From contig CAVTTN010000002.1 of assembly GCA_963737655.1 (NCBI GenBank), forward strand, positions 2,944,001-3,008,000: 64,000 nt of DNA. The letters are read 5' to 3'. A program made the translations under genes and the position numbers. This DNA is from an uncultured Planctomycetota bacterium (GTDB lineage: Bacteria; Planctomycetota; Planctomycetia; Isosphaerales; Isosphaeraceae). This document shows positions 27,771 to 60,167 of this stretch, piece by piece (position 1 is the stretch's first letter; every line of letters starts with the position of its first letter). The notes beneath the pieces were generated by a model that made no database searches, was not told the origin of the DNA, and saw only the letters and a list, made by a program, of their open reading frames with translations.

Positions 27771-27850
<80 letters not shown>

Positions 27851-27967
27851 CGCAAGTCACCCGCCAAACACGAGTTAGGTATACCTGCCGACGGTCGGCA
27901 GAGCGGCCTGGAGGTCCGTGAGGAGTAGTACCGGTACTACTTCGGGCCCGGGATAGGTGCTCTGCCC

Positions 27968-28651
27968 ATGCCCCCCGCCACCATCCGCATCCCCAAGTAC
28001 CGCCATGACAAGCCCAAGGACCTGGCCGTCGTCCGCATCGCCGGCCGCGACCACTCCCTGGGCAAGTACGGCTCCGACGCCAGCCGCGAGAATTACCGGC
28101 GGCTGGTCGCCCCGTCCCTGGCGACCCCCGACGCCCCGGCGGCCGACCCCTCCGGCCGGACCGTCGACTAGCTGCTCGTGGCCTGCTGGGACCGCCACGT
28201 CGTCCCGTACTACGTCAACGACGGCCGCCCCACCCCCGAGCGCGACAACATCCGCCAGGCCCTCCGCCTCCTGCGGCGGCTCCACGGCCCGGCCCCGGCC
28301 CGCGAGTTTGGCCCCCAGGCCCTGAAGCTCGTGCGGGCCGAGATGGTCTGCGCCGGCCGCTGCTGGACCCTCGTCAACAAGGACGTCAACCGGGTCCGCG
28401 CCCTGTTCCGCTGGGCGGCCGAGGAGGAACTCTACCCCGGCGGGGCGTACCAGGCCCTCCGGGCGGTCCAGGCATTGGCCCGGGGCCGGTCCGACGCCAG
28501 GGAGCGGCCGCCGGTCGGCCCGGTGGACCCGGCGGTCGTCGAGGCCACGCTGCCGGGGCTGACGGCGCCGGTGGTGGCGATGGTCCGGCTCCAGCTCCTG
28601 ACCAGGGCCCGGCCCGGCGAGGTCGCGGCGATCCGGCCCCGGGAGGTCGAC
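27968..28651 (+). pseudogene. tyrosine recombinase/integrase remnant
   Basis: 'IPKYR..K..DLAVV.I.GRD..LG.YGS', 'FGPQALK.VR', 'LFRWA', first catalytic-Arg box 'LQLLTRARPGEV..IRP'; in-frame TAG at 28169; truncated before the HxxR and Tyr motifs. Confidence 0.85.
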
Positions 28652-28951: not shown

Positions 28952-29107
28952 CCGCTCCAGGCCCTGGCCCCAGGAACGTACCGAAGAGAGACTGCGACGG
29001 CCCGGGGATCAGTTCCATAGATCCTTGACAAGGTGATGAAAGAAGAACGAGAATGCGACCTCGGATGGCTCTGGCTCGGCCCCAGGGATCCTGAAAGGAG
29101 CGTTCCG

Positions 29108-29715
29108 ATGGCGGGGTGCCCCGAGGATGCGGCACGATCCCTCGACGCGGCCCTGGCCGGCTCGCTCGATGCTCTGGGCGAGACCCTGGAGGGTTGCCGG
29201 TTCTATCTCCTGGCCGTGGCGGAGCGCGACCTCGACCTGGACCTCCGCGCCAAGGGGGGGGCGTCGGACCTGGTCCAGGAGACCTTCCTGGAAGCCCAGC
29301 GTGACTTCGCTCAGTTCGGCGGTAAGACCCCGGACGAGCTCCTGATCTGGCTCAGGCGGCTCCTGAAGAACAACATGGCGAACTTCCTCCGCCACTACCG
29401 GGGTACGGCGAAGCGGAGGTCCGCCAGGGAGGTCCAGCCCGGGGGCGACGCCTCGGCCGGGGGCCTGGCGGCCCGGGTGGCCGACGGCGCCCGAGCCCCA
29501 GCCAGGTCCTGATGGAAGAGGAGACGAACGATGAGCTGAGGCGGGCGATCGACGCCCTGCCCGCCGACCAGGGGCGGATCCTCCTCCTCCGCTACATCGA
29601 GGGCCGCTCGTTCGAGGAGATCGCCGCGGCGATGGGGCGGACCCCGAACGCGGCGAGGAAGCTCTGGGGGAGGGCCGTCGAGAGCCTCCAGGGCGTCCTG
29701 GACGGGCCGCGATGA
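29108..29715 (+). CDS. ECF sigma-70 factor, planctomycete kinase-associated type (frameshift near 29490)
   Basis: 'YLLAVA....LRAK..ASDLVQETFLEA.RDF..F.G', 'WLRRLL.NN', 'KR...REV'; shifted frame 'PSPSQVL', sigma4 'LP..GR.LLLRY.EG.SFEEIA..MGR...AARKLW.RAV'. Confidence 0.88.
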
Positions 29716-32599
29716 GCGACCCGACCGATCCCTCGGCCGATGGGGATCGCCTGTTCGACCTGATGGCCGAATTCGATGAGGCCCTGGTCGCCGGGGCCGA
29801 GACGCCGGAAGCCGGACTGCTCGGGCCCGGCGCCGACCCCGAGCTCCTGTCCCGCCTGGCCGGGAGGATGGCCTCGCTGAGGCGGCTCCACTCGCTCCGC
29901 GCGGACGCCCGGGGGCCGGCCCCGGGGCCCGGCCCGGCACCGCGGACGTTCGGCCGGTTCTCGATCCTCCGCGAGCTCGGCCGTGGGGGCTGCGGGGTCG
30001 TGTTCCTGGCGAACGACCCCAGCCTTCGCCGCGAGGTCGCGCTGAAGGTCCCGAACCCGGAGGCGTTCACCAGCGACTCGCTCCGCCGACGGTTCCAGCG
30101 CAAGGCGCAGGCCGCGGCGGCCCTGGACCATCCGAACATCATCGCGGTCTTCGAGTGCGGAGAGGTCGGCCCGGTCCCCTACATCACCTCGGCCTTCTGC
30201 CCGGGGCCGAACCTCTCGGTCTGGGCGAGCTCTCGGGCCGGCCCGATCCCGGCCCGGCAGGCGGCGGAGATCGTCCTGAGCCTGGCCGGCGCGATCCGCC
30301 ACGCGCATTCGCGGGGGGTCCTCCACCGCGACCTGAAGCCGAGCAACGTGTTGATGGTCCCCCCCGACGGGGACGCCTCGCCGTCGCCGGGAGGCGAGGT
30401 GGCCGATTCCCCCCGGCTGACCGACTTCGGCCTGGCCAGCGTGTTCCGGGCGGAGGGGGCGGGGACGGCCGTCGAGGCCGGGGCGACCAACCTGACGAAA
30501 TCCGGGATGATCTTCGGGACCCCGGCCTACATGACCCCGGAGCAGGCCGACGGCCGGGTCGGGGCGATCGGCCCGGCGACGGACGTCTACGGCCTGGGGA
30601 CGATCCTGTACGAGCTCCTGACGGGCCGGGCCCCGTTCGTCTCCGAGTCCTCGCTAGAGACGCTCCAGCAAGTCCTCCGCGACGAGCCGGTCCCGCCCCG
30701 ACGGCTCCGCCCGAGGCTCTCCCGGACCCTGGAGACGATCTGCCTGAAGTGCCTGGAGAAGGACCCGAGGCGCCGCTACTCGACGGCCGCCGGGCTCGCC
30801 GAGGACCTCGCCCGCTACCTCGACGGTCGGCCGATCGCGGCGAGGCCGACGGGCCTCCTCGAGCGCGCCTGGCGATGGTCCCGCCGCGAGCCGAAGGTCG
30901 CGAGCCTGCTGGCCCTGGTCGTCCTGGCCACGGTCGCGGGATTCGCCGGGGTCTCCTGGCAATGGAGGAGGGCCCAGGGGCAGACGGTCCTCGCCCGGGC
31001 CCAGAGGGATGCCGCCGAGTTCCAGAGGACCCGCGCGGAGAGCCACTTCCGCAAGGCCCGCCTGGTCGTCGATCGGCTGACCAGCCTCTCCGACGAGATG
31101 CGCTATCAGCCCCGAATGGAGAAGACCCGCCGATCCCTCCTCGAGGAGGTCTCACAGTTCTACCAGGAATTCCTGGTCGAGAAGAGCGACGACCCCGGGG
31201 TCCGGCTCGACGCGGCGTGGAACTGCCTCCGTCTTGCCGAGATCTACGCGTGGCTGGGGCGATGGGACCAGGGCAAGGAGGCGATCCAACGCGCCGACGG
31301 CCTGCTCGCGAGCCTCGAGGCCGAGGACCCCGACCGGGCCGAGTACCTCGACGTCCGGGTCACCTACTTCTGGCACCTCAGCGGCTACTACCGCGGCCAC
31401 GACCTCCATCGCGAGGCGCTGAGGGACTACGACGAGGGGATCGCCTACGCCCGCCGCCTGATCGGCGCCCCTCCGGCGCCCCCGGGGGTCGCGTTCCGGA
31501 TGGCGAACCTCCTGGTCAATCGGGCCCTGTCCCGGAAGATCCTCGGGATGAGAAAGGAGGCGGAGCAGGATTATCTCGCCGCGATCGAGATCCAGAACGA
31601 GGCGATCCGGGTCCCGGACGCGAGCCCCGGGCGCCGGGCGCCCTCTCCTGGTGGTCCGAGCTGGCCCTGAGCACGGACGATTACGGGTTCCTGCTCTGGG
31701 AGGACGGGCGCCGAGCGGAGGCGGAGGTGGCCTGTCGGCGGGCCCTGGGCATCCGCCGGGAACTGCTCAAGAAGAGGCCCCAGTACGCCTCCCACAGCTT
31801 TTTCCTGGCGAGGAGCCTGGTCCGCCTCTCGGTGATCCAGAGGGGGAACGGCCAGAGGGACGCGGGCGAGGCGAGCCTCCGAGAGGTGATCGGGATCCTC
31901 CGATCGGTCCTCGCCGAGAGCCCCGATTACCGGGCCGTCCGCGAGCTCCTGGCCGATGCCTGGGCGGACCTCGCCTCTCTCCTGGACGACCTGGGACGAT
32001 ACCGGGAGGCGGCCGACGCGTTCCGCAGCAGCGCCGAGACCCGGGCCGCCCTGGCTCCGGTCGCCACCGACCCCGCCCGTCTCCACCGGGAGATCGGCCG
32101 CCGATGGTCCGATTCGGCCGAGGAGCTGACCAGGGCCGGGCTCGCCAAGGAGGCGCTGGCCGCCCACGACCGGGCGCTCAAGGAGGCGCCGGACGAACCC
32201 TACCCCCAGAACACGGCCGCCTGGTTCCTCGTGACCTCGCCGGACCCGACCGTCCTCGATCCGCCCCGGGCGGTGGCCCTCGCGCGCGCGGCCGTGCGCA
32301 CGGAGCCCGGGTCGGGGAACTACTGGAACACGCTGGGCGTCGCCCTCTACCGCGACGGGGCGCTCGCCGAGGCCCGCACGTCCCTGGAGAAGGCGATGGC
32401 GCTCAAGGGGGGCGGGGGCGCCTATGACTGGTACTTCCTCGCGATGATCCGCTGGAAGATGGGCGAGCCGGGACCGGCCCGCGACCTGTACGACCGAGCC
32501 TCGCGGGCACCCCTCCCGAATCATCCTCCCACCGACGCCGAGCTCCGCCGGTTCCGCGCCGAGGCCGAGGCCCTGATGAGCATACCGCCCGCCCCCTGA
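29712..32599 (+). CDS. Hanks-type Ser/Thr protein kinase with TM segment and TPR domain (frameshift near 31640)
   Basis: 'LGRGGCGVV', 'VALK', 'HRDLKPSN', 'TDFGLA', 'GTPAYMTPEQ', 'TDVYGLG'; TM 'VASLLALVVLATVAGFAGV'; TPR 'NTAAWFL', 'YWNTLGVALYR'; start overlaps the sigma stop (ATGA). Confidence 0.9.
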
Positions 32600-33013
32600 T
32601 CGCCCGTCGCCGGCGATTTCCGGGAATCCCGAGGCCGCCACGACGCGCCGGCCGGGTTTCCGTGCTTAGGGGTTCAGACGCCCTCCGTGCGGAGGGCCAC
32701 CCGGGCCAGGGGGCGGCCGATCGGGTGGGTCGGGTCGGTCCAGCACCGGCCCGACCCTCCGTCCGAGATCGCCCCTCGGCCCGAGTGTCGAGACGCTCGC
32801 CGACCGCCGCGTCCGTTCCCCCCGACCGCCCGCCAACAGACTCGACATCCTCTCCCGGAGGGCCGCGGACCCCGCGCGGCCCGGGGACCCGTCGATTGAT
32901 TGCCGGACCCTCGCGACTCCCCGAGCCGCGGCGAGGCCCCTCGGCGCCTCCGGGCCCGAGGGGGCCGCGCCCCGGCGCGATTCCACCACCCTGGACGAGA
33001 TGGGACCACCCCG

Positions 33014-36000
33014 ATGAGCCGCCACAAGGATTCCGATCCCCGCCGGGCAGAGAAGAATCGTCGCCGGATTGCCGCCCCGAAGAGCCGTCGATTCGCCGGC
33101 CTCGGCATCGAGGCCCTGGAGAGCCGGACGCTCCTGGCCGTCACCTCGCAGCTCAGCAACGGACTTCTCGACATCGCGCTGGGTGCGGCCGGGGACTCGG
33201 TTTCGGTCTCGGTCGCCAGTAACACCGTCGACGTCTTCGACGGGAGCTCCCACGCCTCGTTCCCGGTCTCGCCCGTGGCGGGCCTGACGATCCACGGGAT
33301 CGGCGCGACGAACCAGACGGCGGCGCTCCATTCCTCGATGGTCCTCTCGCTGCCCCTGCTCGTCTCGGGGTTGAGCAGCACCGCGATCGACGGCTCGTAC
33401 CAGTCCCCGACGATCACCCTGAAATCGGCCGAGATCCACATCAACGGCGGCCTGCTCTCGACCCGGGCCGTTGCCCCCGGAGGCGACCCCGCCCTCGCCC
33501 CGTCGATCGGGAATTCGGGCAATCTCCTCCTGGCCGGGACCCTGATCGACGTCACCCCGGGGAGCAAGCTACTGGCGAACGCGGACGGCGGATTCCTGGC
33601 GGGCCAGCTCCGGCTCAAGACGTCCGACTCGCAGACCGGCGAGAACGTGAAGGCTAGCGCTTCGATCGGCGTGAAGGGGGCGATCCTCCGGGGCGGAGAC
33701 ATCGCCCTCGATGCCACGTCGGCCCTGATCGCCACGGCCTCGAAGCCGCTCGACACCGCCAAGGCGAACCTCGCGAACCTGGACGTCTCCTCGACCGCGA
33801 CGGTCCAGGTCGCCGGCGCGACCGAGGTGACCGGCTCGGGATCGGTCACGATCTCCGCCCTTTCCACGGCCGCGACGACCGCGTCGGCGCTCGCGATGTC
33901 GGCGAGCACCGACACCACGGCCGACGCGGCGGTGGCGAAGACGAACGTCGTGAGCACGGCGATCGCCCACGTGGCCGGGACGTCCGTGGTCTCGGCGGGA
34001 GGGGCGCTGACCGTCTCGGCCACGAACGACACGAACGCCGCGACGACTGCCGACGGGTCGCTGTCGGGCGTGAAGGCCGGCGGGGCGAGCGTGGCCATCG
34101 CCTCGGTGACCGCCGACACCGAGGCGTTCGCCGATGGATCGGCCGGCCTCTCGGCCTCTCACGTCGCCGTCACGGCCGACTCCAAGGCCGTGGCCGTGAC
34201 GACGGCCAGGGCCACCGCGGCCGCCGTGACCCAGAATACCGCGGCGACCCAGGGGATGCTGGCCCAGGACGGGGCGAAGTCCAGTGCGGGGGCGATCAAC
34301 CTCGCCGCCTCGCTCGGCGTGACGACCTTCAACGACAAGACGCTCGCCTACCTCGCGACCTCGGCCCCGGTGACGTCCGCCGGCGACCTCCAGGTCCGGT
34401 CGTCGGCCGTCGCCTCCTCCACCGCCAGGGCCGACGCCGGCTCCGCGGCACCGACGGGCAAGCCCTCGGGCGAGGGCGTGGCCGTCGCGGTGAACCATGC
34501 GGGCTCCCAGAATCGGGCCTCGATCGGGGGGACCGGCCAGGTCGCGGCCCAGGGCCTGAGCGTGAGCGCCACGACGCCCGCCGGGTCCCAGAACCTCCTC
34601 GACGCCGAGGCCACCTCGGGCCTCAGCAAGAAGGATTCCACGCTCGAAGGCGCCGCCGCCTTCAACATCGGGTCGCTCGCCGACGAGGCGTTCCTCGCCA
34701 ACGGCTCCGCCGTGAACGCCAACGCGGGAGACGTCCAGATCAAGGCCGGCGGCGACCTGGGGAGCAACGTTTCGGCCATCCCGGCCCCGGGCGCGAACCC
34801 CGGCGGGATCGCCAAGGGGATCGGCGCCTCGCTCGCGGTGAACATCGTCTCGGACCTGACCCGGGCCGAGGTCGAGGACGGTGCGATCCTCAAGGGGGCG
34901 AACAACCTGACGCTCGCCTCGAACGCCCATGAGGCCCTGAGGACCGCGGCGACCGCGGGCGGGGACCCGACCGCCGCTGGCACCTCGTTCGGGGGCTTCT
35001 CGGCCGCGGCCGGGATCTCCGTCCTGAACGCCAGCACGAAGGCCCGGATCGGCGCGTCGCCGGCCGGGAACGCCCCCCTCCAGCTCGGCGGGAGCCTGTC
35101 GGCCGACGCCACCCACGCGGCCGAAGCCGTCGACGCCGTCGGCGGGGCGATCGCCGGGGCCGGGGTGCTCGGGGCCGCCCTGGCCCTGGACATCCTCTCG
35201 GCCCGGACCACCGCGACGACCGACCGCGACCTGAATGTCGGCGGGGACGCCAGCTTCACCACCCACGCGACCCTCGGGAGCGACGCCCAGGCGCAGGCCT
35301 CGGCCCGAGGGGGGCGGGCCCAGTCGGCGAACACCCCGGCCAATGCCGTCGACAAGGAGGCGGCCTCCCAGATCGCCGCCGCCGACGCCCAGTCCCCGGG
35401 CTCGACCAGCGGCGCCACCGCCCCGAAGGCCAGCACCGACTCCGGCGGGATGACCGTCGCCGCGGCCGTCGCCCTGAACCTGATCGCCCATTCGGAGTCC
35501 CTGGCGAGCGTCCCCTCCGGCCGGGCCGTCACCGTAGGCGGCGCCCTGACGGTCGCCTCCGCGAACGACACGGACGGCCACGCCCGGGCCGACGGCAGCA
35601 CGACCACGACGAACGCCACCGGGGTCGGCGTCGGGATCGCAATCAACGCGGACACCGACGACCTCGACCGCGCCCTGATCGGCGCGGGGGCGAAGGTCAT
35701 TGCCAAGGGGCTGACTGTCTCCGCGGGGATGGGCAACTCGGGGGACGGCACGAACACGCTCGGGGCCGACAGCTCCTCCGGGGGCGGGGCGAAGCAGGTC
35801 GGCGTGGCCGGGTCGCTCGCGATCAACGTGGCGAGGACGACGACCGAGGCCGTCGTCGATTCCGGGGCCCAGGTCGCGCTCACCGGCGGCAACGCCTCGA
35901 TCTCGGCCTCCTCGAAGACCTCGGCCCCCGTGAGCGCCGGGTCGAGCAAGGACCTCGGCACGGGCAAGGACAAGGGGATCGGCGTCTCCGCGGCGTTCAA

Positions 36001-39000
36001 CATCGTCGAGGACGACACCCGGGGCGAGGTCGTCGACACCGCGAACCTCACCGGCGCGAAGGGGGTCGCGATCGCGGCCGGCTCGCGCGACGACCTGGAG
36101 ACCACGGCCGAGACCGGCGCGAATCGACCGGGGGGACGGCCGTGGCCGCCTCCGTCGCCGTGGCGGCCCTGAATGCGACGACGACGGCCCGCCTCGGCTC
36201 CGGGCCCGGGCTACCGGCCTCCGGGGACGTGTCGATCCGGGCCGACCACGTCGACACGGCCACCGACGCCGCCGGGGGCACCGGCAAGGGGGCCACGAAG
36301 GCCATCGGCGTCTCGGTCGGGTTGACCTATGTGAACGATAACACCACCGCGACCACCGATCGCGACGTCTTCGCCCCGACCGGGGCCGTGACGATCGCGG
36401 CGCACAACGCCTCGGCCAGCGACACCCGGGCGACCGCCAGCGAGACCGGAGCGATGGACAAGGCGGCCGGGGGGGCCGACAACGGCGCCACCCAGCAGGG
36501 CATGGCGGAGAAGGCCGCCCTCGACCAGAAGGCGGCCGACTCGAACGTGCAGGGGACCGCCGCCGGGGCGGCCGTGCCCGACCCGAAGACCTCCAACGGC
36601 CAGTCGATCGCCGTGGCGGGGGCCCTGGCCCTGGACCTGGTCTACGGGTCGCACGCCTCCGCCTCCGTGCCCGACGGCCGGAAGATCCAGGCCGGGGGCG
36701 GGCTGACGATCGACGCCCAGGGCGACACGGATGCGTATTCGAAGGCCGACGGCGCCGCCAAGGGAGACGCGGCGACGGGAGTCGGCGTGGCCGTGGCCTT
36801 GACCATCGCCCCCGACGTCCTGACCTCGGCGACGATCGGCAAGGACGCCTCGATCACCGCCGACGGCGTGACCGTCTCGGCCGGGATGTCCGGCCAGAAC
36901 GACGGCACGAACGTCGTCGGGGCCGACGCGATCTCGGGCGCCTCGGCCTCCGAGAAGGCCGGGGCGGGCGCCCTGGGGCTGGTCGTATTCCTCCCCCAGA
37001 CGACGGCCACGATCGCCGCCGGGAAGCCCCTGGACGCCGGGGGCGGGAACCTGACCCTCTCCGCGGCCGAGGCCACGAAGAGCACGGCCTCTGCCGTGCC
37101 GGCCCCCGGGCCCGTCCAGGGCACGTCGCTCGGCGTAGGCCTTTCGTTTGCGTTCAACATCGTCGAGCCCACGACCCTCGCCGAGCTCGGCGACGGCGTG
37201 ACCGTCGAACCGAACAGCGTGAAGGACGCCTCGATCTCCGCCTCGTCGACCGATTCGCTGACGACGGTCGCCTCGGCCGGGGCGGCGGCCGAGGGAGGTT
37301 CCGACGGCGGAGGGACCGGCATCGCCGCCTCGGTCGCTGCCAGCGAGCTGAACGCCGACACCCGGGCCCGGATCGGCGCCGGGACCCCGCTGAAGACCAC
37401 CGGTGCCGTCTCGGTCGGCGCGACCCACAAGGATGCGATCACCGCCGACGTCGGCGCGATGAGCACCGGCACCGGGACCGCCGTGGGCGTGTCGATCGGC
37501 CTGAACATCGAGACCGAATCGACCCGGGCCACGACCGATCGCGACCTCGACGCCAGCGGAGCGGTGACCTTCAACGCGCAGGGCGTGACGGCGAGCGACG
37601 TGACCTCCCGGGCCAGCGGGGTCGGCGGCCAGGACAAGGCGCCGGGCGGATCGTCCACCGGTGCGAAGGACGAGGCGGACGCCTCCAAGAACACCCTGGA
37701 CCTGAACGCCAAGGCCGCGTCGCCCAAGGCGAAGGGCGTGGGCGCGAACGCCACGATCCCCGACGCCAGGAACGGCGACGGCAAGAGCGTGGCGGTCGCC
37801 GGGGCCCTGGCGATCGACCTCCCCGTCTCCGTCGACGTCGAGGCCACGATCCCCGATGGCCGGTCGATCTCGGCCGGGGGCCCGCTGGAGCTCGCCGCCC
37901 TGGGAGACGTCGACGCCCACACCAGCGCCGATGGCACGGCCGTGGGACAGGCGAGCACCGGGGTCGGCGTGGCCGTGGCCCTGACGATCCTGCCGAGCGT
38001 GACCACCACCGCCACCATCGGCAAGAATGCGACGATCCACGCGCCGGGGTCGCGCTGACCGCGGGGATGGCGAGCGACAACGACCAGACGAACGTGATCG
38101 GCGCCGACGCCACCTCCGGGGCCTCGGCCACGGACAAGGCCGGCTCCGGCGCGTTCGCGCTGGACATCTTCCTCGCCGGGACCACCGCGACGGTCGGCCT
38201 GGGGACGGCGATCGACGCCGGGGCCGGAAACCTCGCCCTGTCGGCCGACGAGGCGACGAGGAGCACGGTCAACGCCCTGCCCGCGATCTCCAAGGGCCTC
38301 CCCGGCCAGCCCGAGGCCCGCACGGTCCTGGGCGTGGGGATCGCCGTGGCGCTGAACATCGTCGAGACCGACACCCGCGCCGAACTCCTCCCCGCCGTGC
38401 ACGTCGTGAACGCCCAGAATCCGGCCCTCGCCGGGGCCCATGACGTCTCCCTGAAGGCCGATTCGAAGGACGATTTGAAGACGACGGCGACGGCCGGCGC
38501 CTCGGTCCCGAACCCGTCGGACGACGGCGAGGGGATCGGCGCGGAGGCCGCCATCAGCATCCTGCTCGCGACGACCGACGCCAGCATCGCCCCGGGCGGC
38601 GCCCTGATCGCGGGCCACGACGTCTCCGTGGTCGCCGATCATGCCGACACGAACGTGACGACCGGCGACGGCTTCGGCCAGTCCGGCGGGACGGCGATCG
38701 GGATCGCCATCGGCTTCACCTACGTCGATTCCGAGACCACGGCGACCGTGGGCGAGGGCCTCACGGCCGAGAACGACGTCCTGATCGGCGCCCAGAACGC
38801 GACGGCCAGCGACACCATTTCGAGGGCCAGCACCGCCGGGGGCAAGGCGGGAGGGGGGAACCAGCCCGTCGATTCGCCCGACCAGGCCGCGATCAAGCAG
38901 AGGGACCTCGGCGATTCGTACGCGACCGGCAGCGGCGGCAAGGCCACGGGCCCGACGTCGAACCCGAAGGCCAGCACCTCCAGCGGGAGCGTTGCCGTGG

Positions 39001-42000: not shown

Positions 42001-45000
42001 AGGACACCGCCGTTGGCGGCTCGATCCTCGTGGACGTCGTTTTCGAGACGACCCATGCCGAGATCGGCGCCGGGTCCCTCGTGAACGGGACCGCCGCCGG
42101 GCTGCTCGACCAGTCGGTGATCGTCACGGCGACCGACGCCGTGACGCTCCACGACGCGGCCGGAGGGCTCGGCATCAGCACCGGCGGCGACGGCGTCGGC
42201 GCGGGCCTGCTCGTCTCGGTCCTGACCGCCGACACGGCCGCGAAGATCGACGACGGCGTGACGGTGAAGGCCGGCGGCGACGTCGTCGTCCGGGCCTCCG
42301 AGGCCGAGGACTTGCTCGAAATTGCGGTGGCCGGCGCGATCGGCGACGGCGACGCGGTCGCGGTGACCGTCGCGGTCTTCGTCCCCCTGATCACCACCCA
42401 GGCCGGCCTCGGCGCGTCCGACCACGTGACCGCAGGAGGCAACGTGATCGTCGGAGCCGATCACGACTTCACCGCCTTCCTCGTGGGCGGGACGCTGGCC
42501 GTCGGCGGGGGATCGGCGAGCTTCGGCGCGGAGGTCGCGACGATCGTCCTGATCGATCAGACGGACGCCTCGATCGGCCACGACGCCTCGGTGGTCTCGC
42601 ACGGCCGGACCCCCGCGATTGACGTCCCCACCGGGGCGGAGGACGCGAACGGCCAGGCCATCACCGAGCCGGTCGACGGCGTGGCCGTCACGGCGACGAC
42701 TCGCCATCACGTCCAGACCTTCGCGATCGGCGGGGCCATCAGCGGAAGCGGCGCGGCCATCAGCGGGTCGGCGGCCGTGAACGTCGATCAGGACACGACG
42801 CTCGCCCACATCGACCACGGCGCGACCGTCCTGGCGGCCGACAACAAGCCCGGGACCGGCCCCTCGGTCGTCGTCCTGGCGTCGGACACGCTGGTCCAGG
42901 TGAGCGCCGGCGGGGCCCTGGCCGGCGGCGACAGCGAGGGCGTAGGCATCGGCGTGGACGTGGGGGTGATCGCGAAGCAAACGGAGGCCTCGATCGACGC
43001 CCTCGGCGTCGGTGCCGACTCGAACGTGATCGTCCGGGCGAACTCGTCGGAGGACTTCACGTCCGTGAGCGCCACCCTCGCCGCGGCCGGCGAGGCGGCG
43101 ATCGGCGGGGCGGCCGGGGTCTACGTGGTGAACGACAGGACGCGGGCCTTCATCGGCTCGGCCGGCAACGACGGCCCGCACCTGGTCGAGGCCCGGGGGA
43201 ACGTGATGGTCGCGGCCCGCGAGTCGCTCGGCCTGGTCATGCTCGCCGGCAGCATCACTGCCGCGCCGAGCGCCGCCGTGGGGGTCGGCGCCGGGGTCCC
43301 GATCATCAACAAGACGACCGAGGCGTTCATCGGCGAGGGGTCGACGGTCGTGGGCCTCGGCCTGGGCGGGACGATCGATGCCGACACCGGCGAGTTCGGC
43401 CAGGTCCTCGGGGCATACAGCCCGGTCTTCGGCGCCACCGGGCCGAGCAGCCAGAGCGGTCGGCCGATCTACGAGGACTCGAATCACAACAAGACGATGC
43501 TCCCGCAAAACGGGGCGGTGAACCACAGCGCCGACTCCGTCCCGCTCACGCAGGCGATGCGGGGGGTCGCCGTGACCGCCACCAACAAGGACAAGATCGA
43601 CACGATCGGGGTGAACGCCGGGGCCTCCGGGTCGGTCGCGGTGAACGTGACCGGGGTAGTGAACATCCTCACGAACGTGACGACCGCCCACGTCGATGCC
43701 GGGGCGACGATCAACTCGAACAACCCGGGCGCGGCGGCCGACCAGTCGGTGAGGGTCGCCGCGGGGGACGCCTTCTCGCAGATGGCCGCGGCGGCGGGCC
43801 TGGCCGCCTCGGGATCGGTCGCCGTGACGGCCGCCGCCACGGTCCTGATCGCGAACGAGACCACCCTGGCCACCGTCGCCGACGGCGCCCACCTCTGGGC
43901 GAAGGGCGACATCAACGTCGAGGCCCACGCCTCCGAGGAGCTCCTGACCGTCGCCGCCACGCTCGCCGTCTCCGGGACCGCCAGCGTGGGCGGGGCGGTC
44001 TCCGTCGTGGTCCTGAACGACGTGACCCGCGCCTCCCTCGGCGACAAGGCGACGACCGACCCGGCCGGCGCCACCGCCGACGCCGGGGGGAACGTCGTGG
44101 TCGCCGCCTCCGACGACACCGACTCCCTGACCGTCGCCGGAGGGGTCTCCGTCGGCGGCGACGCCGGCGTCGGCGCGGCCGTCGCCGTCACGATCTTCAA
44201 CAAGGACACCCGCGCGTTCGTCGGCGACCATGCGACGGTCAACGCCTCGGCGAGCTCCTCGCCGATCGACGGCGTCGTCGACGGCACGATCAAGGACGAC
44301 GGCACCTTCGAGGCCCTCCCGGGCTTCCGGGGGCTGGCCGTCCAGGCGACATCCAGCGAGACCGTCCTCCAGGTCGGCGCCGAGGCCGCCGCCGGCTTCT
44401 ACCTGGGACTGGGCGGGGGCGTCACGATCGAGCTGTTCAATTCCAACACGAACGCCTACATCGGCCGGGACGCCCACATCAACCCGGGCACCTCGGGGGC
44501 CTCGCAGGGCCAGTCCGTGAACGTGGCGGCGGCGAACCGCGTGAAGGATTTCTCGCTCGGCGGCGGGATCGGGGTCGGTGTCGTTGGGATTGGCGGGGGC
44601 GTGGATGTCGGCGTCCTCCGCAACAACACGTCGGGATTCATCGACGCCGGGACGGACGTGCACGCGAACGGGGACATCCACGTCTACGGCCTCTCCAGCG
44701 AGGACATCACCACCTTCGCCATCAGCGGGGCGGGCGGCCTGGGCGCGGTCTCGGGGTCGGTCTCGGTCTGGTCGATCGGCTCGGCCTTCCAGTCGAGCTA
44801 CTCCGACGATGGGCAGTCGGCCGACGGCCTCGACTCCAGCAATCAGAGCCCGGGCCAGACGTCGTCGAACCTGAAGAACACGACGTCGCAGAGCATGGCG
44901 ATGACCGGCAAGTTCACGTCGGCGACCGACTCATTCCTGGACCCGGCGAACAACCCCGCGCTGGCCCCGGCGAAGGGAGTGGGCACGGCCCATTCGATGA

Positions 45001-48000
45001 GCAACTCGTCGATCGCGAGCAACTCCGGGGGGGACGAGGCGGGCGAGGCGATCGGGGCGACCCTCTTCACCGCGGGCACGTCGGCCCAGGTCCGCGACGG
45101 CGCGTTCCTGAAGGCCGGGGGGGACGTCGGCGTCCACGCGATTGACCACCTGGTCGTCACGGCGAACGTCGGCAACATCTCCGGCGGCTTCGTCGCCGTG
45201 GGCGCCTCGGTCGCGATCGTGAACATCCACAGCCATGTCGAGGCGACGATCGGGAAGGACGTGGAGATCGACGCGCAGGGGGACGTCTCGGTCACCGGCC
45301 TTCTCGTGAAGGACCACGTCGGCTTCACGATCCTCGCCGGCTCCGTAGGCGTGGCGGCCCTCGGGGCGCAGGTGGTCCTGGTCCACGACGACAGCACCCA
45401 GGACGCCTCGATCGGCGAGGACTCGACGATCATCGACGCCGCGAGCGTCCTGGTCGACGCCGCCGCGAACCGGGACGTCGATGGCACGACGCTCGACGCC
45501 AAGATCGGCGGCCTGGCCGTCGGCGTGACCTACGTGGACATCTCTTTGACGGGCTCGACGGCCGCCTCGATCGGCGACGGCGTCCACATCGGCGGCGCGA
45601 ACGGGCGGAGTCCGGTGGGGGACGTCTCGGTCCTGGCCGTCGGGATCAACACCGCGAAGGACGACGCCTTCGCCGTGACGGCCGGGGCGATCAGCGGGGC
45701 CGGGCAGCACGTCTCGGAGGGCATCACGCCGAGCGTCTCGGCGACCGTCGGGAGCGGGGTCGACATCGAAGTCGGCGGCTCGATCCTCGTCGACGCGGTC
45801 TCGTCCGGGGACGCATCGGCCCACCTGTTCAACGCGACCATCGGCGTGATCGCCGTGACCGTGATGACGTCCGACGTCACGGTCTCGCCGACGGTCGTGG
45901 CGGCGGTCGGCCCGGCCACCCTGCTCCAGGCCGGCGGCTCGATCGACGTGGCCGGCTCGCACGACTTCGGCCCGAACGGGGCGCTGACGTCCCTCGGGGC
46001 CCACGCGATGAGCCAGGCCCCGGGCGGCGGCGGGATCACCGGCACAGGCGTCGCCCCCCAGGCGATCGCCGACGCCACGGTCGTCGCCTCGGTCGCCGAC
46101 GGGACGGCCCTCAAGGCCGGCGATCGGGTCTCGGTGACGTCCTCGCTCTCGAACAATGCCGACGCCCAGAGCGATTCGGCGTCGCTCGGGGCCCTGGGCG
46201 TGGGCGTGAGCCTCGCCACCGCCGAGGCCGACGGCTCCTCGACCGCCCGGCTCGATGGCGACGTCCTCCAGGCGGGCGACGTCCGGGTCGTGTCGCTCGG
46301 GTCGAACCACGCGGACGCCGAGGCCACCGCCGTGGGGGCCTCCGGGGTGATGTCGGCCGAGGGGGCGTCCGCCTCCGCCGACGCCTCGCCCGTCCTCCTG
46401 GCGAGGATCGGCGGCGGGCCCGGCGGATCGATCGTCCACGCGGGAGGGGACGTCCAGGTCTCGTCCGCGTCCGCGTCCCACGCCTCGGCGGTCGGGCATT
46501 CCGTCGCCATCGGCGGCCTGTTCTCGCTGGGCCTGGTCGCCAGCGACGCGAAGGTCGATCCGAAGGTCTCCGCCACGGTCGGCGGGGGATCCACGATCAC
46601 CACGCCGGGCGGCTCGATCGACGTCTCGGCGTCGCACGACTCGGGCCCGGGGCCCTGGCCAGGGCGTCCGCCCCGGGGGGCGGCCTGGCGGGCTTCAACG
46701 GGGCCTCCCCCACGGCCGACGCCTCGGCGATCGTCACGGCGAGCGTGGCCGAGGGGGCGACCCTGGACGCCGGCGGGGACGTCGCGATCACCGCCACTTC
46801 AAATAACGAGGCGACCACCGTGGCCTCGTCGTTCACCATCGGGATCGTCTCCTCGTTCGGCACGTCGGTGGCCACCGCCACGGCGGACGGGCAGACCTCG
46901 GCCCTCCTCGACGGCGACGTGACCGGGGGCCTGGACCTGGCCGTCCTCGCCTCGGGGACGAACGTCGCGGGGACGAACGCCGAGGCCGTCGGCGGCGGGC
47001 TCGTCGCGGGCAACGGGGCGATCAGCACCGCGACGGCGGCCCCCGTGAACCTCGCGAGGATCGGCGACGACTCGGCCCCGTCCCATGTCTCCGTCCTGGT
47101 CGACGTGACCCTCGGGGCCTCGTCGATCGCGACCGCCGAGAGCCACGGGGTGGCCGTGACCGGCGCCCTGGCGATCGGGATCGGCGTGGTCCTGTCGACC
47201 GCGACGACCACGCCCACGACCACGTCCTCCGTCGGGGCGTTCTCCTCCATCGACGCGATGCGAGGCTCGATCGACGTCTTCGCCCATCACAACATCGACG
47301 ATCGCCCCGGGGCCGTGGCCACGGCGCAGGCCCCCGGGTTCAGCGGGGCGGCCTCGGCGAACGGGGCGGTCCCGACGGCGACCAGCACGGCGACCACCCG
47401 CTCCCTCGTGGCCCATCGCTCGAAGCTCTCGGCCGGGCGGGACGTCACGATCGACTCGGTCGCCACCGGGGGCGCCTCGTCCACGGCCGACGCCCTCTCG
47501 GGCGCGTTCGGTGTGGCCTTCGGCGCCTCGATCGTCCACGCCACCTCCAACGGGACGACCCGGACGATCATGGACGGCCTGATCACCGATGCGCAGGACG
47601 TCACGATCGGCGCCGAGGCCACCGATGCCGTCGTCGCCGACGGCGCCTCGGCTTCGTTCGGGGTGCTCGCCGGGCTCTCGGGCGTCCTGGTCGACGCGAC
47701 CCTCCTACCGACGACGGTCGCCCGTGTGGGCGATTCCTCCGCGTCGGGGGCGATCGTCGCCGAGAAGGACGTCCTGGTCCGGGCGACTGCGCTCGACACC
47801 TCGAAGGCGACGGCCCACGCCGAGGCCGGCGGGGCGCTCGGGTTCGGGCTGGCCTCGGCCACCGCGACGGCCTCGCCCGAGGTGGGCGCGGTCCTCGGCG
47901 ATGGCTCCTCGATCGGCACCCTCGGCTCGATCACCATCGTCGCGGACCTGGATCTCCCCCACGTCGGCGAGACCGCAGGGGCCTCCGCCCAGTCGCCCGG

Positions 48001-51000
48001 CGCCGGCCTGGTCTCAGGCGACGGCGCCCTGGCCGATGCCGAGGCAAAGCCGCACGTGTACGCCCTGGCCGACACGCTCTCGACCCTGACCGCGGGGTCG
48101 GAGGTCAGCGTGATCGGGAGGTCGAGGACGCTCAGCGACGCCTCCACCGACGCCGTCTCGTTCGGCCTCGCCGCGATCGGGGCGGCCGTGGCCTCCGCCG
48201 AATCGAGCGCCCAGACCTCGGCCTCCGCGCTGGGGAAGACCGTGGATGGCGGGTCCCTGCTCGTCTCCTCGGCGGGACGGGACGTCTCCTCCTCGACCGC
48301 CCAGGCCACGACCGGCGGGTTCCTGCTCTCGCTCGACGGGGCGGCGGCGAAGGCGATCGTGAACCCGTCCTCGACGGCGACCCTGGGCGCCGACGACGGG
48401 TCCTCGACGGCCATTCTGAACGGTCCCGCCTCCGTGACGGCCCACGAGACGGCCTCCGCCGACGCGAAGGGCGGCAGCTCCTCGCTGGGCGGGTTTGCGG
48501 CCGTGGGCCTGGTCTCGACCCATGCGGACGTGACCCCGACGATCGACGCCGGGCTCGGCTCGGGGACGACCTTGAAGACCACGGGGGGCGACGTCGTCGT
48601 CTCCGCGACCTTCGACGACGGGGCCGGCGGGTCGACCGCTTCGGCCGACGGGACGACGCTCAGCGGGGGGATCAGCGCGATCAGCACGGCCGCCGAGGCG
48701 ACGGTCGCCCCGGTCGTGACGGCCCACGGCGGTCCCGGGGCGACGGTGAACGCGGGAGGGGCCGTCACGTTCCTGGCGGACTCGAAGGAGGACGCCTCCG
48801 CCAGGTCCGGCGAGCTGGCCGGCTCGCTCTTCCTGGCCGTCGGCGGCTCGGGCGCCACGACGACCCTGGGCGGATCGACGAAGGCGAGCGCCGACGGACT
48901 GGCCGAGCTGCTCGCCGCGGGCCCCCTGGAGGTCCGGGCGAATGACGCCGGGTCCGCGAACAGCCATGCGACGGCCCTCGGCGGCGGGCTATTCGTCGGC
49001 GCCTCGGGGGCCTCCGCCTCCGCCACCACCAACCGCCAGGTCGGGGCCGTCCTCGGGGCGTTCCTGGTCCTCGCCGACTCGGTGGGCATCGATGCGTCGG
49101 CCGACGACAGGGCCATGACTCTGGCCGACGGAGTGGCCGTTGGCGGCCTCGGCGCGGTCGGGACGTCCGCCGCCACCTCGATCGCGAACACGACCGTCCT
49201 AGCCTCGCTCGATGACGACACCTCGATCGACACCCCCGGCGTCCTCCTCGTCGACGCGACCGGCGCGAACGAGGCGGACGGCACCGCCAACACCAGCGCG
49301 GGCGGGTCCGTCGGCGTCGACGCGACCCACGTCGCCCTGATCGGGACGATCGACGTCCGCGCCAACCTCGGCAAGGGAAGCTTCGTCCACGCCCTGGAGA
49401 TCGGCGTGGCGGCGGACTCGACCAACGACGCGAACGGGTTCGCCGACGGCCAGGCCGGCGGGCTCGTCGGGGCGGGATCGCAGAAGACATTCGCCGACCT
49501 CTACGACACCACGGTGGCCGACGTGGGCGACGCGACGAAGGCCGACCCGACCTTCCTTCAGGGCACCTTCGGGATCGCGATCACGGCCCACGGCAAGAGC
49601 GACGGGATCGCCGACACCGTCGGCGGCAACGGCGGGCTCCTCGGGTCGGGCGGCGGGGCGCAGGGCGAGTTCCTGATCCACTCGCCGACGGTCACGGCCC
49701 GGGTCGGGGACGAGGCCCACCTCGTCACCCTGGGCGACCTGACCATGACGGCCTCCGACGACCTCACCCCCTACGCCCACACCGACCAGCACGGCGCGGG
49801 AGGGATCTCGACCCAGGAGGCCTCCTCCGACGCCGAGGTCCTCGGCGAGGCCCTGCTCGTCGAGATCGGCCGGGACGTGGAGGCGGACGTCCAGTCGCTC
49901 TTCGCCCAGGCCCGGCAGGCGGACGTGGACGTGATCGCCTATGCGATCTCCGACGTCCCGGTCGCGGCCGCCGGGTTCAGCCATGCGTACGCGACGGCCA
50001 ATGCCTACACCTCGTCCACCGTCCACATCGCGGCCGGGGTGACGATCGACGCCACGTCCGGCGTGATCCTCGACGCCTCGGGACCCAACAACACCTTCAC
50101 CAGCGCGTATGCCGAGGCCGACGTGGTCGGCATCCCGATCCCCGTGGCCTCGGCGGAGGCCACGAGCGAGAAGCACAGCACGGACTGCGTGATCGTCGAT
50201 GCCTCGGCCACGATCACCACCCCGACGCTCGACATCAACGCCGGGGCCAGCCCGCCGCTCGGCCCGGATGACGGCTATTCCAAGGGGACCCACACGAACG
50301 TCGATGGCGTGAAGAGCGACGGGACGACCGGGCCGGGCTCGCAGACGAATTTCGCCTGCGTGGACCTGAACGCCGACCTCTTCTTCGACCCCGCCTCGTC
50401 CCACACCCTCCTGCTCGGGTCGCAGGGCCTGATCGCCGACTCCACCGGCCTCCTGATCGAGGACGGGGACGGCCTGAAGTCCATCGGGGACACGCTCACC
50501 GGCCCGTTCACCGTCCACACGCAGAAGAGCAAGAAGTCCGGCGGGACGCTGAAGGTCCACGCCACCGACGGCCAGACGATGGGGCATTCGACGATCCACT
50601 ACAACCCGTTCGGCAGCCTGGAGCTGCTCAACGGCACCTTCTTCCCGATGACCATCACCGGCCTGGACACCTTCGATAACACGCCGACCGACATCGTCCA
50701 CGAGGGCGACCCCTCGATGCTGGATTGGACTTACGACCTCGTCTCCCGGCCCGCACCCACCACGGTGACCATCGACAGCTTCGACCCGGGGAACATCATC
50801 CTCGCCGGGCCGATCGTGGCCCCGACGGCCGACGTCTCGATCTCGGTGGGCCACGGGGACCTCGTCGTCTCCCCGCCCGCGACCTCGGGCGCGCCGGACC
50901 CGACGATCCTGGCCAGGTCGCTCTCGATCGACGTCCCGTCCGGGGCGATCGGCGACGCCACCCGTCGCCTGGGCGTCGAGTTCGCCGCCGACGCGAGCGG

Positions 51001-52681
51001 CACCTCGGGCTTCGGCCACGTCTCCGCGGATCGCGGGGCTTTCCTCAACACGACGTTCGGCGCGGTCGCCGGTCCGGCGGACTTCTCGATCGGCGACATC
51101 CACTCGGCCTCGGGTCCGGTGGACGTGGCGATCGGCGACGGCGAGGCCGGCACCGCTCTCACCCCGACGGATGCGAGGTGGCATGTCGGAGCGATCGACT
51201 CCGGCACGTCCGACGTCACGCTCCGATTCGGCCAGGACCGGAGCCTGGAGAACGACGTGATCCTGGAAGGAGCGATCCGGGCCCCCCTGGGCCATGTGAC
51301 GGTCCAGACGGCGAACGGCGAGATCACGTCGTCGGGTCCCGGCCAGGTGATCGGCGCCCTCGGGATCGCCCTGGACGGGTCGGCCATCGGGACCCACGAG
51401 TCGCCGATCCTGATCGACATGACCCCTCCCGCGACCGACCCGACCGGCGGCCCGGCGCCCTCCGGGGTCCTCGACGGCCTCGCGGGGGACCGAGGCGGGT
51501 TCTTCGCCCGATCGATCGGCGGGCCGATCCGGGTCGGCGACATCCAGGCCCCCCGCGCCGGGGACGTCGAGCTGACGAGCACCGACACCCCGGAGCCGGG
51601 CGACGACATCACGCTGGCCACGAGCCTGGGCCGGATCTCCGCCCCCCACGGGAACGTCGTCCTCGACGCCGGGGATGATTTCTTCCTCGCCGACGGCGAC
51701 TCGATCCAGGCGCTGGGCGACGTGACCATCCGGGGCGACGTCGGCGATGCCGACCCCGGAGTCGGCTCGATCATGGAGATCGACGGCGACATCGCCGGCG
51801 CCACGCTCCTGGTCTTCGGGGGGGCGGACGGCGATTCCGTGGCCCTCCGGAAGCTCGCGGCCGGCCTCTCCGCGACGATCGCGACCGGCGAGGGGGACGA
51901 CTCGATCTTCGTCGGGTCGATGGCCACGGCCACGCCCGACGCCCCGGGCCGTCCGGTGTCCGTGAAGAACGGCGGCGACCTCCAGAGCATCCTCGGGTCG
52001 CTGACGGTCGACGCCGGGCCCGCCACGTGGGCCGCGGGCGGACACGATCGCCTGGTCCTGGAGGCCGACGGCGACCGCCAGGGCAGACAGGTCTCGATCG
52101 ACGGCCGGACGGTCGCCGGGCTGACCGGCGGACGCCTCCCCGATCGGGGCGGGCCGGGCTACGGCTTCAACCCGATCACTTATCTGAATATCGAGGCCCT
52201 GGATATCCTGCTGGGAAAGGGCGATGATACGATTGACCTGACGGCGATCGACCCCGAGACGGCGACCACGATCGACGGCGGCGATGGCGACGACCTGTTC
52301 CGGGTCGGAGCCATCGGCTCGACCGATGCGACGGTGCCCTCTCCGGTCCTCCTGGGCGGTCCGGGCTCGAACACGATCCAGGGGCCCGACTCGAACAACG
52401 CCTGGAGGATCATCGGGGTCGATGGCGGTGTGGTCGCCGGCCCGAACGCCTTCTCCTTCGGCTCGATCGGGAGCCTGAAGGGCGGCCGGCTCGACGACGT
52501 CTTCGCCTTCGACGACGGGGCGACGCTGGACGGCTCGATCGACGGCGGGGCCGGCACCAACGCCCTGGACTATTCCCTGTACACGACCCCGGTCGAGGTC
52601 GACCTGGCGGCCGGGACGGCGACCGGCGTCGCCGGCGGGGTGGCGAACATCACGTCGGTGGTCTACCCGAAGAAGAAATGA
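33014..52681 (+). CDS. giant secreted beta-rich repeat protein (adhesin/haemagglutinin-like, C-terminal RTX-like repeats), ~6,500 aa; frameshifts near 36130, 38045 and 46650
   Basis: basic leader then 'IEALESRTLLA' export motif; continuous Ala/Gly/Ser/Thr/Val-rich sequence across ORFs 32900..36172, 36142..38058, 38067..46922, 46745..52681; 'IDGGDGDDLF' and 'IDGGAGTNALDYS' at the C-terminus. Confidence 0.85.
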
Positions 52682-52782
52682 ACATCCCCCGGATGCCGTC
52701 GGGTTGGCCCGACGGCATCCGGGACGAGCAGCGTCCCCCGTGCCCAGACCCGGCTCCTCGCCCATCCAGGAAGGGAAATCTC

Positions 52783-53619
52783 ATGCCTCTGGCAATCGAC
52801 CGACGGCCCGTGCGCCTCGCCCTCCTCGCCATCGCAGCGACCCTCGGCGGGGCGGCGAGGGCCGACACGATCGACGTGGCGGTGCTCTACGCGGACGTCG
52901 ACTTCCCCGCGGGGAATAACTCGGTGGAGGGCCTCCAGGCGAAACTCCTGGCCACCGGCCTCTTCGGCAATGTCGACCTGATCTCGGTCAGCGACCCGGG
53001 CAGCACGCCCTCGCTCGCGACCCTGAATCACTACGCCTCGGTCCTCTCCTACACGAACTACCCGCTCGACGACCCGACGGCGCTGGGCGACGTCCTGGCC
53101 GATTACGCCGATGGGGGCCGGGGGGTCGTCCTGGCGGCCTACGGCCTGGGGGACGCCTCGGTCCCGTTCGGGTCCACCGGGTTCGCGGGCCGGATCACGA
53201 CGCCCGGCTACTCCCCTCTGGTCGTCTCGGGGGACCTCTCGGACCTCGACGGCGCCCTGACGGCCCTGGTCCCGGGCGACCCGGTCTTCGCCGGGGTCGA
53301 TCTGGCGGGGCTGACGTACTACCACGACGCCTCGTTCGGCATGCCCGCGCTCGACGCCGGGGCGACCCTCCTCGCGACCGACGGTTCCGGCGTGAACCTA
53401 CTCGCCCGGAGCGCCAGCGGCCGGGTGATCGGGCTGAACCTGTTCCCCGGCACCGACCCGGCCGGGAACAACGACGCCTTCTATGCCCTCCTGGGCAACA
53501 CCCTGAAGGACGTGGCGCCGGTCCAGGCCGTGCCCGAGCCGGCGTCCCTCACTCTGATCGGCCTGGGCGCCGCAGGCCTACTCGCCCGTGCCCCGATCCG
53601 CCGGCGGCGGCCTGTCTGA
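52783..53619 (+). CDS. PEP-CTERM sorting-domain protein
   Basis: signal peptide ending 'AARA'; C-terminal 'AVPEPASLTLIGLGAAGLLARAPIRRRR'. Confidence 0.9.
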   Translation: MPLAIDRRPVRLALLAIAATLGGAARADTIDVAVLYADVDFPAGNNSVEGLQAKLLATGLFGNVDLISVSDPGSTPSLATLNHYASVLSYTNYPLDDPTALGDVLADYADGGRGVVLAAYGLGDASVPFGSTGFAGRITTPGYSPLVVSGDLSDLDGALTALVPGDPVFAGVDLAGLTYYHDASFGMPALDAGATLLATDGSGVNLLARSASGRVIGLNLFPGTDPAGNNDAFYALLGNTLKDVAPVQAVPEPASLTLIGLGAAGLLARAPIRRRRPV

Positions 53620-55850: not shown

Positions 55851-56233
55851 GTTCGCACGACTCCCGCCACGCCTTGCGAATCTCGGAACCGGCCTTTTCT
55901 AGCACAGCCTCAGTTAGTGGTGTTTTCCCACTTCACGAGGTCTTCGATGATTTTGAACAGCCGGGCGAGATTCTTGGTCCAGTGACCCTTCGCATGAATG
56001 TTGGGCTCGACGCCGGAGTTCTGACAGCGCCACAGATCCTCGGGATCGTGGACGAGTTGGGCGAAGATGACAGCCCTAGCCGTAGCCACCGGAGGTTGCG
56101 CCCACCATTTATGAAAAGAGGTCGGATATCCTCCTGGTGCTTTTCGCTTCCTGCGAGCGCATTCTTCGTTTATGGAGTCGAGGGGCAGGGCGACCTCGAT
56201 GAGCTTCTTGGGGGAGATCACGCCGTCGGTCAT
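55851..56233 (-). pseudogene. DUF1156 (adenine methyltransferase-associated) N-terminal fragment, cut by IS5
   Basis: '[13 protein letters not shown]....R', '[20 protein letters not shown]', 'LF.IIE.LVKWENT'; shifted frame 'EAVLEKAGSEIRKAWRESCEL' runs to the IS end. Confidence 0.8.
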
Positions 56234-60066: not shown

Positions 60067-60116
60067 GCACGCTTCGGGTCCGTGAAGTCGGAGGTTCAAA
60101 TTCTCTCGCTCCGACT
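60067..60116 (+). repeat. attR: duplicated 3' part of tRNA-Pro
   Basis: gcacgcttcgggtccgtgaagtcggaggttcaaattctctcgctccgact matches tRNA 27798-27847 at 46/50. Confidence 0.92.
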
Positions 60117-60167
60117 ATTTCTCTCACATCCTTGTTTTGTGGCTCGTTTTGGGTCTTACCTGCTTAA

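Follow-up and report, generated by a model that had tools for sequence, protein, structure and literature searches.

A kinase-linked extracytoplasmic function sigma factor and the predicted promoter of a giant LktA-repeat gene in a planctomycete island: a unit likely put together from two cassettes

We describe four genes, all on the + strand within a tRNA-Pro island of an uncultured Planctomycetota bacterium, that encode an extracytoplasmic function (ECF) sigma factor, a membrane Ser/Thr kinase, a giant secreted protein and a PEP-CTERM protein. They lie in a stretch of 64,000 nucleotides (nt), hereafter the window (G000:C2:2944001-3008000; GenBank assembly GCA_963737655.1, contig CAVTTN010000002.1), to which all coordinates without a prefix refer. 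Genomes of the family are designated G### (121 including the source genome, G000), fetched loci L### and retrieved proteins P####. G000 comprises 7.63 Mb with 68.7% GC and, despite being in only three contigs, has a completeness of 87.7%. Family matches (TIGR02984-like sigmas, LESR leaders) and the names given to homologs place it among the planctomycetes, probably in the Isosphaeraceae. We propose, with a probability of roughly 0.6, that the ECF sigma factor is activated by its kinase and transcribes the giant gene and its partner from a promoter occurring only once in the genome, and that this arrangement was assembled from two cassettes.

The sigma gene (29108..29715, + strand; 202 aa, with an assembly shift near 29495) overlaps by ATGA the gene for a Hanks-type Ser/Thr kinase (29712..32599, +; ca. 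962 aa across one shift near 31630), and no anti-sigma gene is visible at the locus; the coordinates thus bear out the layout of the original prediction. The best family for the sigma factor is TIGR02984 (Sig-70_plancto1), although the cut-off of 183.75 bits is reached neither by the intact ortholog from G003 (169.3 bits) nor by the two halves in the window (87.7 and 64.4 bits). Its sigma2.2 motif is GASD, with Ser53 at the position of the phospho-Thr of the ECF43 sigmas EcfP and EcfK. Ser occupies the third motif position in eight of the nine parsable TIGR02984-like paralogs of G000, and in other sigmas of this genome the motif is DAED-like (unpaired ECFs) or QATA (ECF43-type ones). All 13 TIGR02984-like paralogs adjoin a kinase, within a genome containing at least 32 ECF-kinase pairs and ca. 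120 kinase loci, and therefore the pairing is in itself ordinary. The kinase retains the Gly loop, VAxK, HRD and DFG motifs, and has one predicted transmembrane (TM) helix (aa 396-414) and C-terminal tetratricopeptide repeats (TPRs). By analogy, the pair looks like a phosphorylation-controlled ECF. The original prediction had suggested searching for ECF promoter motifs upstream of 29108; there is indeed a candidate promoter before the sigma-kinase operon, which is of sigma-70-like type (TTGACA-18-GAGAAT; 29025..29054, +; one match, versus 0.1 +/- 0.3 in shuffles). The orthologous operon of G003 is preceded by TTGACA-17-GATGAT.

The second region suggested for this search, 32600-33013, contained a bipartite element, CACGAC-N12-TTTCCGTGCTTA (32639..32668, +), located 345 nt before the giant ATG and without any other full copy in the genome. 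In its general form, CRCGRC-N12-TTTCCGNGCTTA, the element precedes both the giant gene and a LESR/RTX gene that neighbours the sigma-kinase orthologs of G003; the two upstream regions are identical at 25 of 29 nt (window 32641-32669; E 0.001, in one of 10 pairwise comparisons). The G003 copy lies on the strand opposite to the kinase and ca. 1 kb from its stop codon, so that conserved flank of the kinase gene does not simply account for it. We then turned to 80 metagenomic loci of the same sigma subclade for an independent test; seven of them contain the -10 part, TTTCCGNGCTTA. In five of these the motif lies ahead of the sigma match and on its strand, ending 12-31 nt from it, as expected of an autoregulated ECF; in the other two it faces a divergent gene, for a LESR-type protein (L181) and a protein with a twin-arginine leader (L161). 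A relaxed pattern added three loci with the motif just before the sigma gene and one within a coding region, and a reversed control pattern matched none of the 80. In the metagenomic loci the -35 box has the consensus CGCGGC and stands 12-13 nt from TTTCC; the window has CACGAC there, at 12 nt. Of the 121 family genomes, only G000 and G003 contain the full pattern, a single copy in each, against three hits of the control; given this single occurrence in G000, the predicted regulon is the giant and its partner alone. These comparisons support the view that the giant carries the predicted cognate promoter of this sigma subclade.

The 29-nt element does not precede the giants of G003 or G454, and the regions upstream of the giants of G000, G003 and G454 have no common promoter-like element above shuffles (five shuffles each). 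A pattern GACGC-N16-18-SCTTA was discarded as too loose; likewise, other matches to the -10 part in G000, G003, G454 and G002 were attributed to chance, lacking a -35 box and, in G000 and G454, overlapping open reading frames (ORFs). Separately, in L160, L166, L167, L176, L179, L185, L186 and L231 the predicted -10 box ends ca. 12-13 nt before the sigma ATG, which suggests very short leaders.

The giant and PEP-CTERM genes form a fixed pair, whereas the four-gene unit is not conserved. Three of the 121 family genomes have the PEP-CTERM partner, in each case immediately after the giant; P0115 and the giant P0003, from Logan contigs of equal size, are probably a fourth case. However, the original prediction of a conserved four-gene module failed, at least in its strict form of this sigma/kinase clade being linked to giants elsewhere: none of the 120 other family genomes has the four genes together, none of the 13 fetched loci of kinase homologs contains an LktA giant and, by coordinates, just one other match (G459:C4) is near a giant, from which a further LESR gene separates it. 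G003 carries, on contig C118, an intact giant of 7,240 aa and its PEP gene, preceded by insertion sequence (IS) and LigD-like genes and followed by a different ECF gene and a kinase gene that is truncated, and on contig C135 the sigma-kinase orthologs (69% DNA identity), convergent with the 289-aa LESR/RTX gene. The giant-PEP pair of G454 has a divergent TIGR02999 (ECF43-type) sigma and a TPR kinase alongside. The three closest giant-PEP copies each neighbour a different ECF-kinase pair. The unit was likely put together from two exchangeable cassettes, one with sigma, kinase and promoter and the other with the giant and PEP-CTERM genes.

The four genes could also be one ancestral unit that was acquired and kept together, and that was split later in G003. 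Consistent with this, G000 and G003 share both pairs, which have diverged to a similar extent (66-69% DNA identity), neither pair turned up in G001 or G002, and IS and mobile-type genes lie on either side of the G003 giant. Moreover, G011:C21 (L026:4243-12900) contains a tRNA-Pro(CGG), a 3.2-kb mini-island and then a co-oriented ECF, kinase and LktA-type giant, that is, the gene order and the tRNA of the window. Nonetheless, the G011 sigma is of TIGR02999 (ECF43) type and its kinase of another class, the giant-PEP pair of G454 also has an ECF43-type sigma, the promoter copy in G003 heads a different secreted gene, and no second genome has all four genes together, so we regard a common ancestral unit as quite unlikely.

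To these we add the survey of 24 LktA-giant loci, 20 of them picked from the best matches plus those of G000, G003, G011 and G305. An ECF-kinase pair directly adjoins the giant, or the giant and PEP genes, in 11 loci (nine upstream and two downstream, in eight arrangements), and 13 loci have no adjoining pair; some of the contigs surveyed end early. As background, 84 of 4,441 ORF starts in G000 (1.9%) are within 2.5 kb of an ECF-kinase pair, and 9 of its 85 LESR-motif ORFs of any kind lie near one, one of the nine probably being a false match. The 13 loci without a pair, the 9 of 85 LESR-motif ORFs and the abundance of pairs and kinase loci in G000 could mean that the adjacency is incidental, with pairs and giants piling up in variable regions and the shared element being no giant promoter. 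We find this very improbable, since the motif stands before the sigma's own start in independent loci, the element is unique in the genome, and the neighbours are mostly immediate instead of scattered.

Other arrangements were seen around giants. In G468:C32 (L089:16184-16897, L109:2084-4144), an ECF43-type sigma and a kinase lie divergently upstream of a giant, and the gene immediately after the giant encodes an unrelated PEP-CTERM protein; this is the four-part layout built from different parts. G000 encodes another LESR giant (G000:C2:799886, - strand; open frame of 5,297+ aa) that starts 374 nt from a divergent ECF-kinase pair, and further LESR genes adjoin pairs in G000:C2 at 1183818, 4654409, 4664485, 6239954, 6722580 and 7157697. 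The giant-PEP pair of G454:C13 is followed by large ORFs that resemble, by the look of the sequence, nonribosomal peptide synthetases (L073:3779-17916).

Five shifts interrupt the genes of the window, near 29495 in the sigma gene, 31630 in the kinase gene and 36131, 38045 and 46650 in the giant gene, each by the loss of one base at a G/C run. Among 49 ordinary genes matched to G003 (65.7 kb), 13 carry a shift in G000, from the loss of a base in 11 and the gain of one in two; a 14th event, not borne by G000, is left out of this count. From this background, together with 21 unshifted genes matched to G001 (27.4 kb), 3.4-4.8 shifts are expected per 24 kb, compared with the five observed. As the original prediction held, then, the shifts are of the kind seen in core genes: they match the background in number and direction and are probably assembly errors. 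For the sigma gene this is shown by P0142, a Logan short-read protein of 202 aa, which is an intact sigma with no difference from the window on either side of the break. The other four shifts would likewise be artefacts, judging from the lack of in-frame stops, the GC content at third codon positions (GC3) and the colinearity with intact orthologs; the giant alone has 6,553 codons without an in-frame stop, at a GC3 of ca. 0.95 throughout.

The same wiring might nevertheless be decaying in this strain, with the kinase inactive, some of the shifts real and the giant silent in an immobilised island. This would fit a Lys at the position of the alphaC Glu of the kinase, a change unique among 111 parsed homologs, as well as the decayed integrase, the degenerate attachment (att) copy and the broken neighbours described below. 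It would also fit an uneven error rate, in that none of 21 ordinary genes matched to G001 (27.4 kb) is shifted in G000. The intact sigma of the short-read contig, the long open frame and uniform GC3 of the giant, the agreement of the shifts with the background and the preserved promoter element argue, however, against decay, which we deem unlikely.

From the observed gene content, motif positions and linkage, we infer the following scheme for signalling, transcription and adhesion in a functional, two-cassette locus. The sigma-kinase operon would be made constitutively from the sigma-70-like promoter, and the periplasmic TPR region of the kinase, by analogy to PknS, would sense an envelope cue. 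The kinase would phosphorylate Ser53 of the GASD motif, as proposed from EcfP and EcfK, which would give the sigma factor the negative charge it requires for binding core RNA polymerase. The sigma factor would then start transcription at the conserved CACGAC-N12-TTTCCGTGCTTA element, and the output would be a long beta-solenoid filament and an exosortase-anchored partner, for adhesion or matrix. That the kinase activates the ECF to express the giant had already been predicted, and this is now strengthened by the phospho-type motif and the predicted promoter and weakened by the alphaC Glu-to-Lys change.

Several points count against this scheme. The GASD motif retains one Asp, and ECF groups with an acidic residue in the sigma2.2 motif may, according to PMC8999054, work differently from EcfP. 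Of 120 homologs of the kinase, 111 could be parsed, and 109 of these have Glu at the alphaC position and one has Asp; the G003 kinase has Glu as well. With Lys there (residue ca. 130) the switch may be dead, or the base may have been miscalled; no near-identical intact copy of the kinase is among the 120 matches listed in the protein search. The element lies 345 nt from the giant ATG, as opposed to 128 nt in G003 and ca. 50 nt in L181. The -10 part was derived from G000 and G003, hence those two matches are circular; 73 of the 80 metagenomic loci, many of them short contigs, lack the exact motif, and there is no copy in 20 family loci of the next-closest sigmas (L142-L147 seen in part). Some of the four shifts in the kinase and giant genes may be real. 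Finally, the 24 giant loci are kin and best-match picks, four of them with one arrangement, and we claim no statistic from them.

The giant gene (33014..52681, +; ca. 6,550 aa, with three shifts) encodes an Arg-rich N-terminal leader with a conserved LESRTLLA motif, super-repeats of ca. 388 aa (NF012206, LktA_tand_53) and an RTX-like C-terminal region. Its largest piece scores 131 bits in 12 stretches for NF012206 (cut-off 50 bits), and the G003 ortholog reaches 44.9 and 33.5 bits with its two halves. It is colinear with intact orthologs of 6,573-7,720 aa, among which the number of super-repeats varies. One repeat unit was modelled as an all-beta solenoid, with a predicted local distance difference test (pLDDT) score of 81.7, weakly alike FHA, SufD and EtpA (Z 9-10). 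The best VIA-align match, the FHA secretion domain (Z 9.7, root-mean-square deviation (rmsd) 2.6, 132 aligned), shows only the beta-solenoid arrangement, and Foldseek returned no match of the unit at E<=0.001. The product is predicted to be a long beta-solenoid filament, likely with a role in adhesion or matrix.

Homologs of the giant are named 'leukotoxin LktA family filamentous adhesin'. Two-partner secretion (TPS), as in the LktA leukotoxin, relies on a TPS secretion domain and an adjacent transporter gene. The giant has no Pfam/NCBIfam match beyond the repeat, with toxin and TPS domains not detected, and the island has no transporter gene; a leukotoxin was thus rejected, because the repeat family alone matches. 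The giant is also outside the four matches to Planc_extracel (PF07595, cut-off 25.5 bits) at E<=0.01, with 150 of 216 candidates scored, although the LESRTLLA motif is present. Related giants occur in 24 of the 120 other family genomes, and an internal giant piece was matched weakly in 1 of 400 other genomes of a phylum sample; the N-terminal alignment gave no confirmed locus in metagenome contigs and, in genome contigs, G003 alone. Giant genes are common in this family (PMC5352709). As for individual loci, G465:C2 has two near-identical giant starts 6.1 kb apart (L095:12714-20000), from a recent tandem duplication or a truncated copy, and a recombinase/transposase-like insertion interrupts the giant gene of G455:C4 (L129:8781-12220). 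In G000 itself, an ORF at C2:~2806500-2808000 (L235:3-1502) ends in what we take to be a Hint-like region.

The PEP-CTERM gene (52783..53619, +) encodes 278 aa with a signal-peptide-like N-terminus and a VPEP sorting motif (PF07589, 25.9 bits against a cut-off of 20.7), and G000 has an exosortase (PF09721, 216.5 bits). Between the giant and this gene there is a 17-bp stem-loop (52687..52724) that scores as terminator-like on the - strand only. The partner is modelled (pLDDT 92.2) with a ThuA/class-I glutamine amidotransferase (GATase)-like fold (2gk3: Z 19.5, rmsd 2.8, 204 aligned); this cargo domain matches no Pfam family and has no conserved Cys, and ESM Atlas returned just unnamed or DUF clusters for it. 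The ThuA-like domain of the partner was also seen with PF18203 tails or behind a PF02368 domain (P0120, P0121, P0125, P0127, P0128 and P0131), and these varied contexts point to a mobile surface domain without a Pfam family.

The island extends from the tRNA-Pro(CGG) gene (27771..27846, +), whose 3' half is the left att site, to a degenerate copy of that half (60067..60117, +) that is 41/44 identical and the only further copy that the genome contains. The four genes account for 75.8% of the island, in line with the ca. 75% of a tRNA-integrated island that had been predicted. The remainder is, also as predicted, decayed or IS DNA: IS pieces, a decayed gene that we take to be an integrase from its sequence features (27968..28650, +; with an in-frame stop and a shift, and ended by an IS-like fragment), an IS4/5-type transposase in two frames identified by family matches (DUF4096 and DDE; 54977..55829, +), and a broken SNF2/ResIII helicase with a NOV_C domain, plus the start of the next gene, cut by an IS (55910..59720, -). 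The integrase-like remnant has three paralogous stretches elsewhere in G000 and no Pfam match. The island shows the duplication of the tRNA 3' end and lacks the intact integrase that mobility would need. The tRNA-Pro(CGG) site is an integration hot spot, with other DNA in G001, G002 and G011; G001 and G002, of the same genus as G000, have the upstream flank and the tRNA in common with it, followed by different DNA. Evidence for the predicted horizontal acquisition comes from the att sites, the integrase remnant and the patchy occurrence; base composition adds nothing to it, and low GC as a sign of transfer was rejected because the island, at 72.1% GC, is above the genome. Alike short palindromes (GTAGTAC/GTACTAC), possibly integrase arm sites, are just within both island ends (27925-27942 and 59921-59940), and just beyond the right att site there is an ISAzo13-family transposase (PF07592; 60262-61458), after which come a RibD-like gene and the beginning of a further kinase gene.

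Kinase-linked ECF groups of planctomycetes have been predicted for over a decade, and kinase-TM-TPR proteins are common in the phylum (PMC11032199, in part). In the excerpts from PMC7826278, neither a characterised member nor a full promoter is given for ECF59 or ECF217. To this background the locus adds a predicted promoter, a predicted single target, a fixed giant-PEP pair and evidence for regulator exchange. It offers a testable, predicted set of a phospho-site (Ser53), a bipartite promoter backed by independent loci and a single target operon, and suggests how costly 20-kb surface genes might gain dedicated control and be re-wired by cassette exchange. Our literature searches listed no publication dealing with this promoter or with an LktA giant controlled by an ECF-kinase pair, although earlier work may already describe such contexts; the components are of known types, ECF217s1 has already been noted in a context of ECF, kinase and secreted protein, and in this strain the kinase may be inactive. 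Tentatively, planctomycetes might use portable one-target phospho-switches, in which an ECF, its receptor kinase and the promoter of the sigma itself move together and capture any giant or secreted surface gene that comes to lie behind that promoter, with the dozens of pairs per genome forming a recombinable code from single envelope signals to single giant filaments. If so, the code would here link to an LktA-repeat filament with a dedicated exosortase-anchored partner.

With LktA-type filamentous proteins (NF012206), the giant shares the repeat family, the giant size and a predicted laminated beta structure, and it has an LExRxLL-type leader like Cag_665 of Chlorobium chlorochromatii (LEPRxLL there; bioRxiv 10.64898/2026.03.19.712371, in part). 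Unlike LktA-type proteins, it has super-repeats in variable copy number and a fixed PEP-CTERM partner, and no TPS or toxin domain or transporter was detected. The partner agrees with the PEP-CTERM/exosortase sorting system, as outlined in PMC1569441, in its C-terminal VPEP motif over the Pfam cut-off and the exosortase in the genome, and differs from it in that its predicted ThuA/GATase-like domain lacks a Pfam family and is tied to the giant in one clade.

Judged by described features, the sigma factor fits ECF59s2 or ECF217. In the excerpts of PMC7826278, ECF59 (s2) and ECF217 are planctomycete ECFs without an anti-sigma factor and with a longer linker, and have at +1 a kinase that spans the membrane once and in some cases carries TPRs; the window kinase, with one TM helix and TPRs, resembles that of ECF59s2, and the context of ECF217s1 already includes a Planc_extracel protein and a TPR. 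These excerpts give a "conserved TC in -35" for ECF59 promoters and no conserved motif for ECF217. The -35 here is CRCGRC, with TTTCC just before the -10 box. In contrast to these descriptions, the window has a full bipartite promoter and a single target, both predicted, together with an LktA-repeat giant and a PEP-CTERM gene, neither of which is mentioned in the excerpts. Close parallels are EcfP/PknT of Vibrio parahaemolyticus and EcfK/PknS of Xanthomonas citri (PMC8999054 and PMC13147305, both in part), where a kinase-TM-TPR receptor likewise adjoins an ECF with Ser/Thr in place of the acidic residue at the third sigma2.2 position. Membership of ECF43 itself was rejected, the window motif being GASD instead of QTTA/STTA and TIGR02999 not being among the matches listed. 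Whereas EcfP and EcfK serve polymyxin resistance and the type VI secretion system, the predicted output in the window is one giant surface protein.

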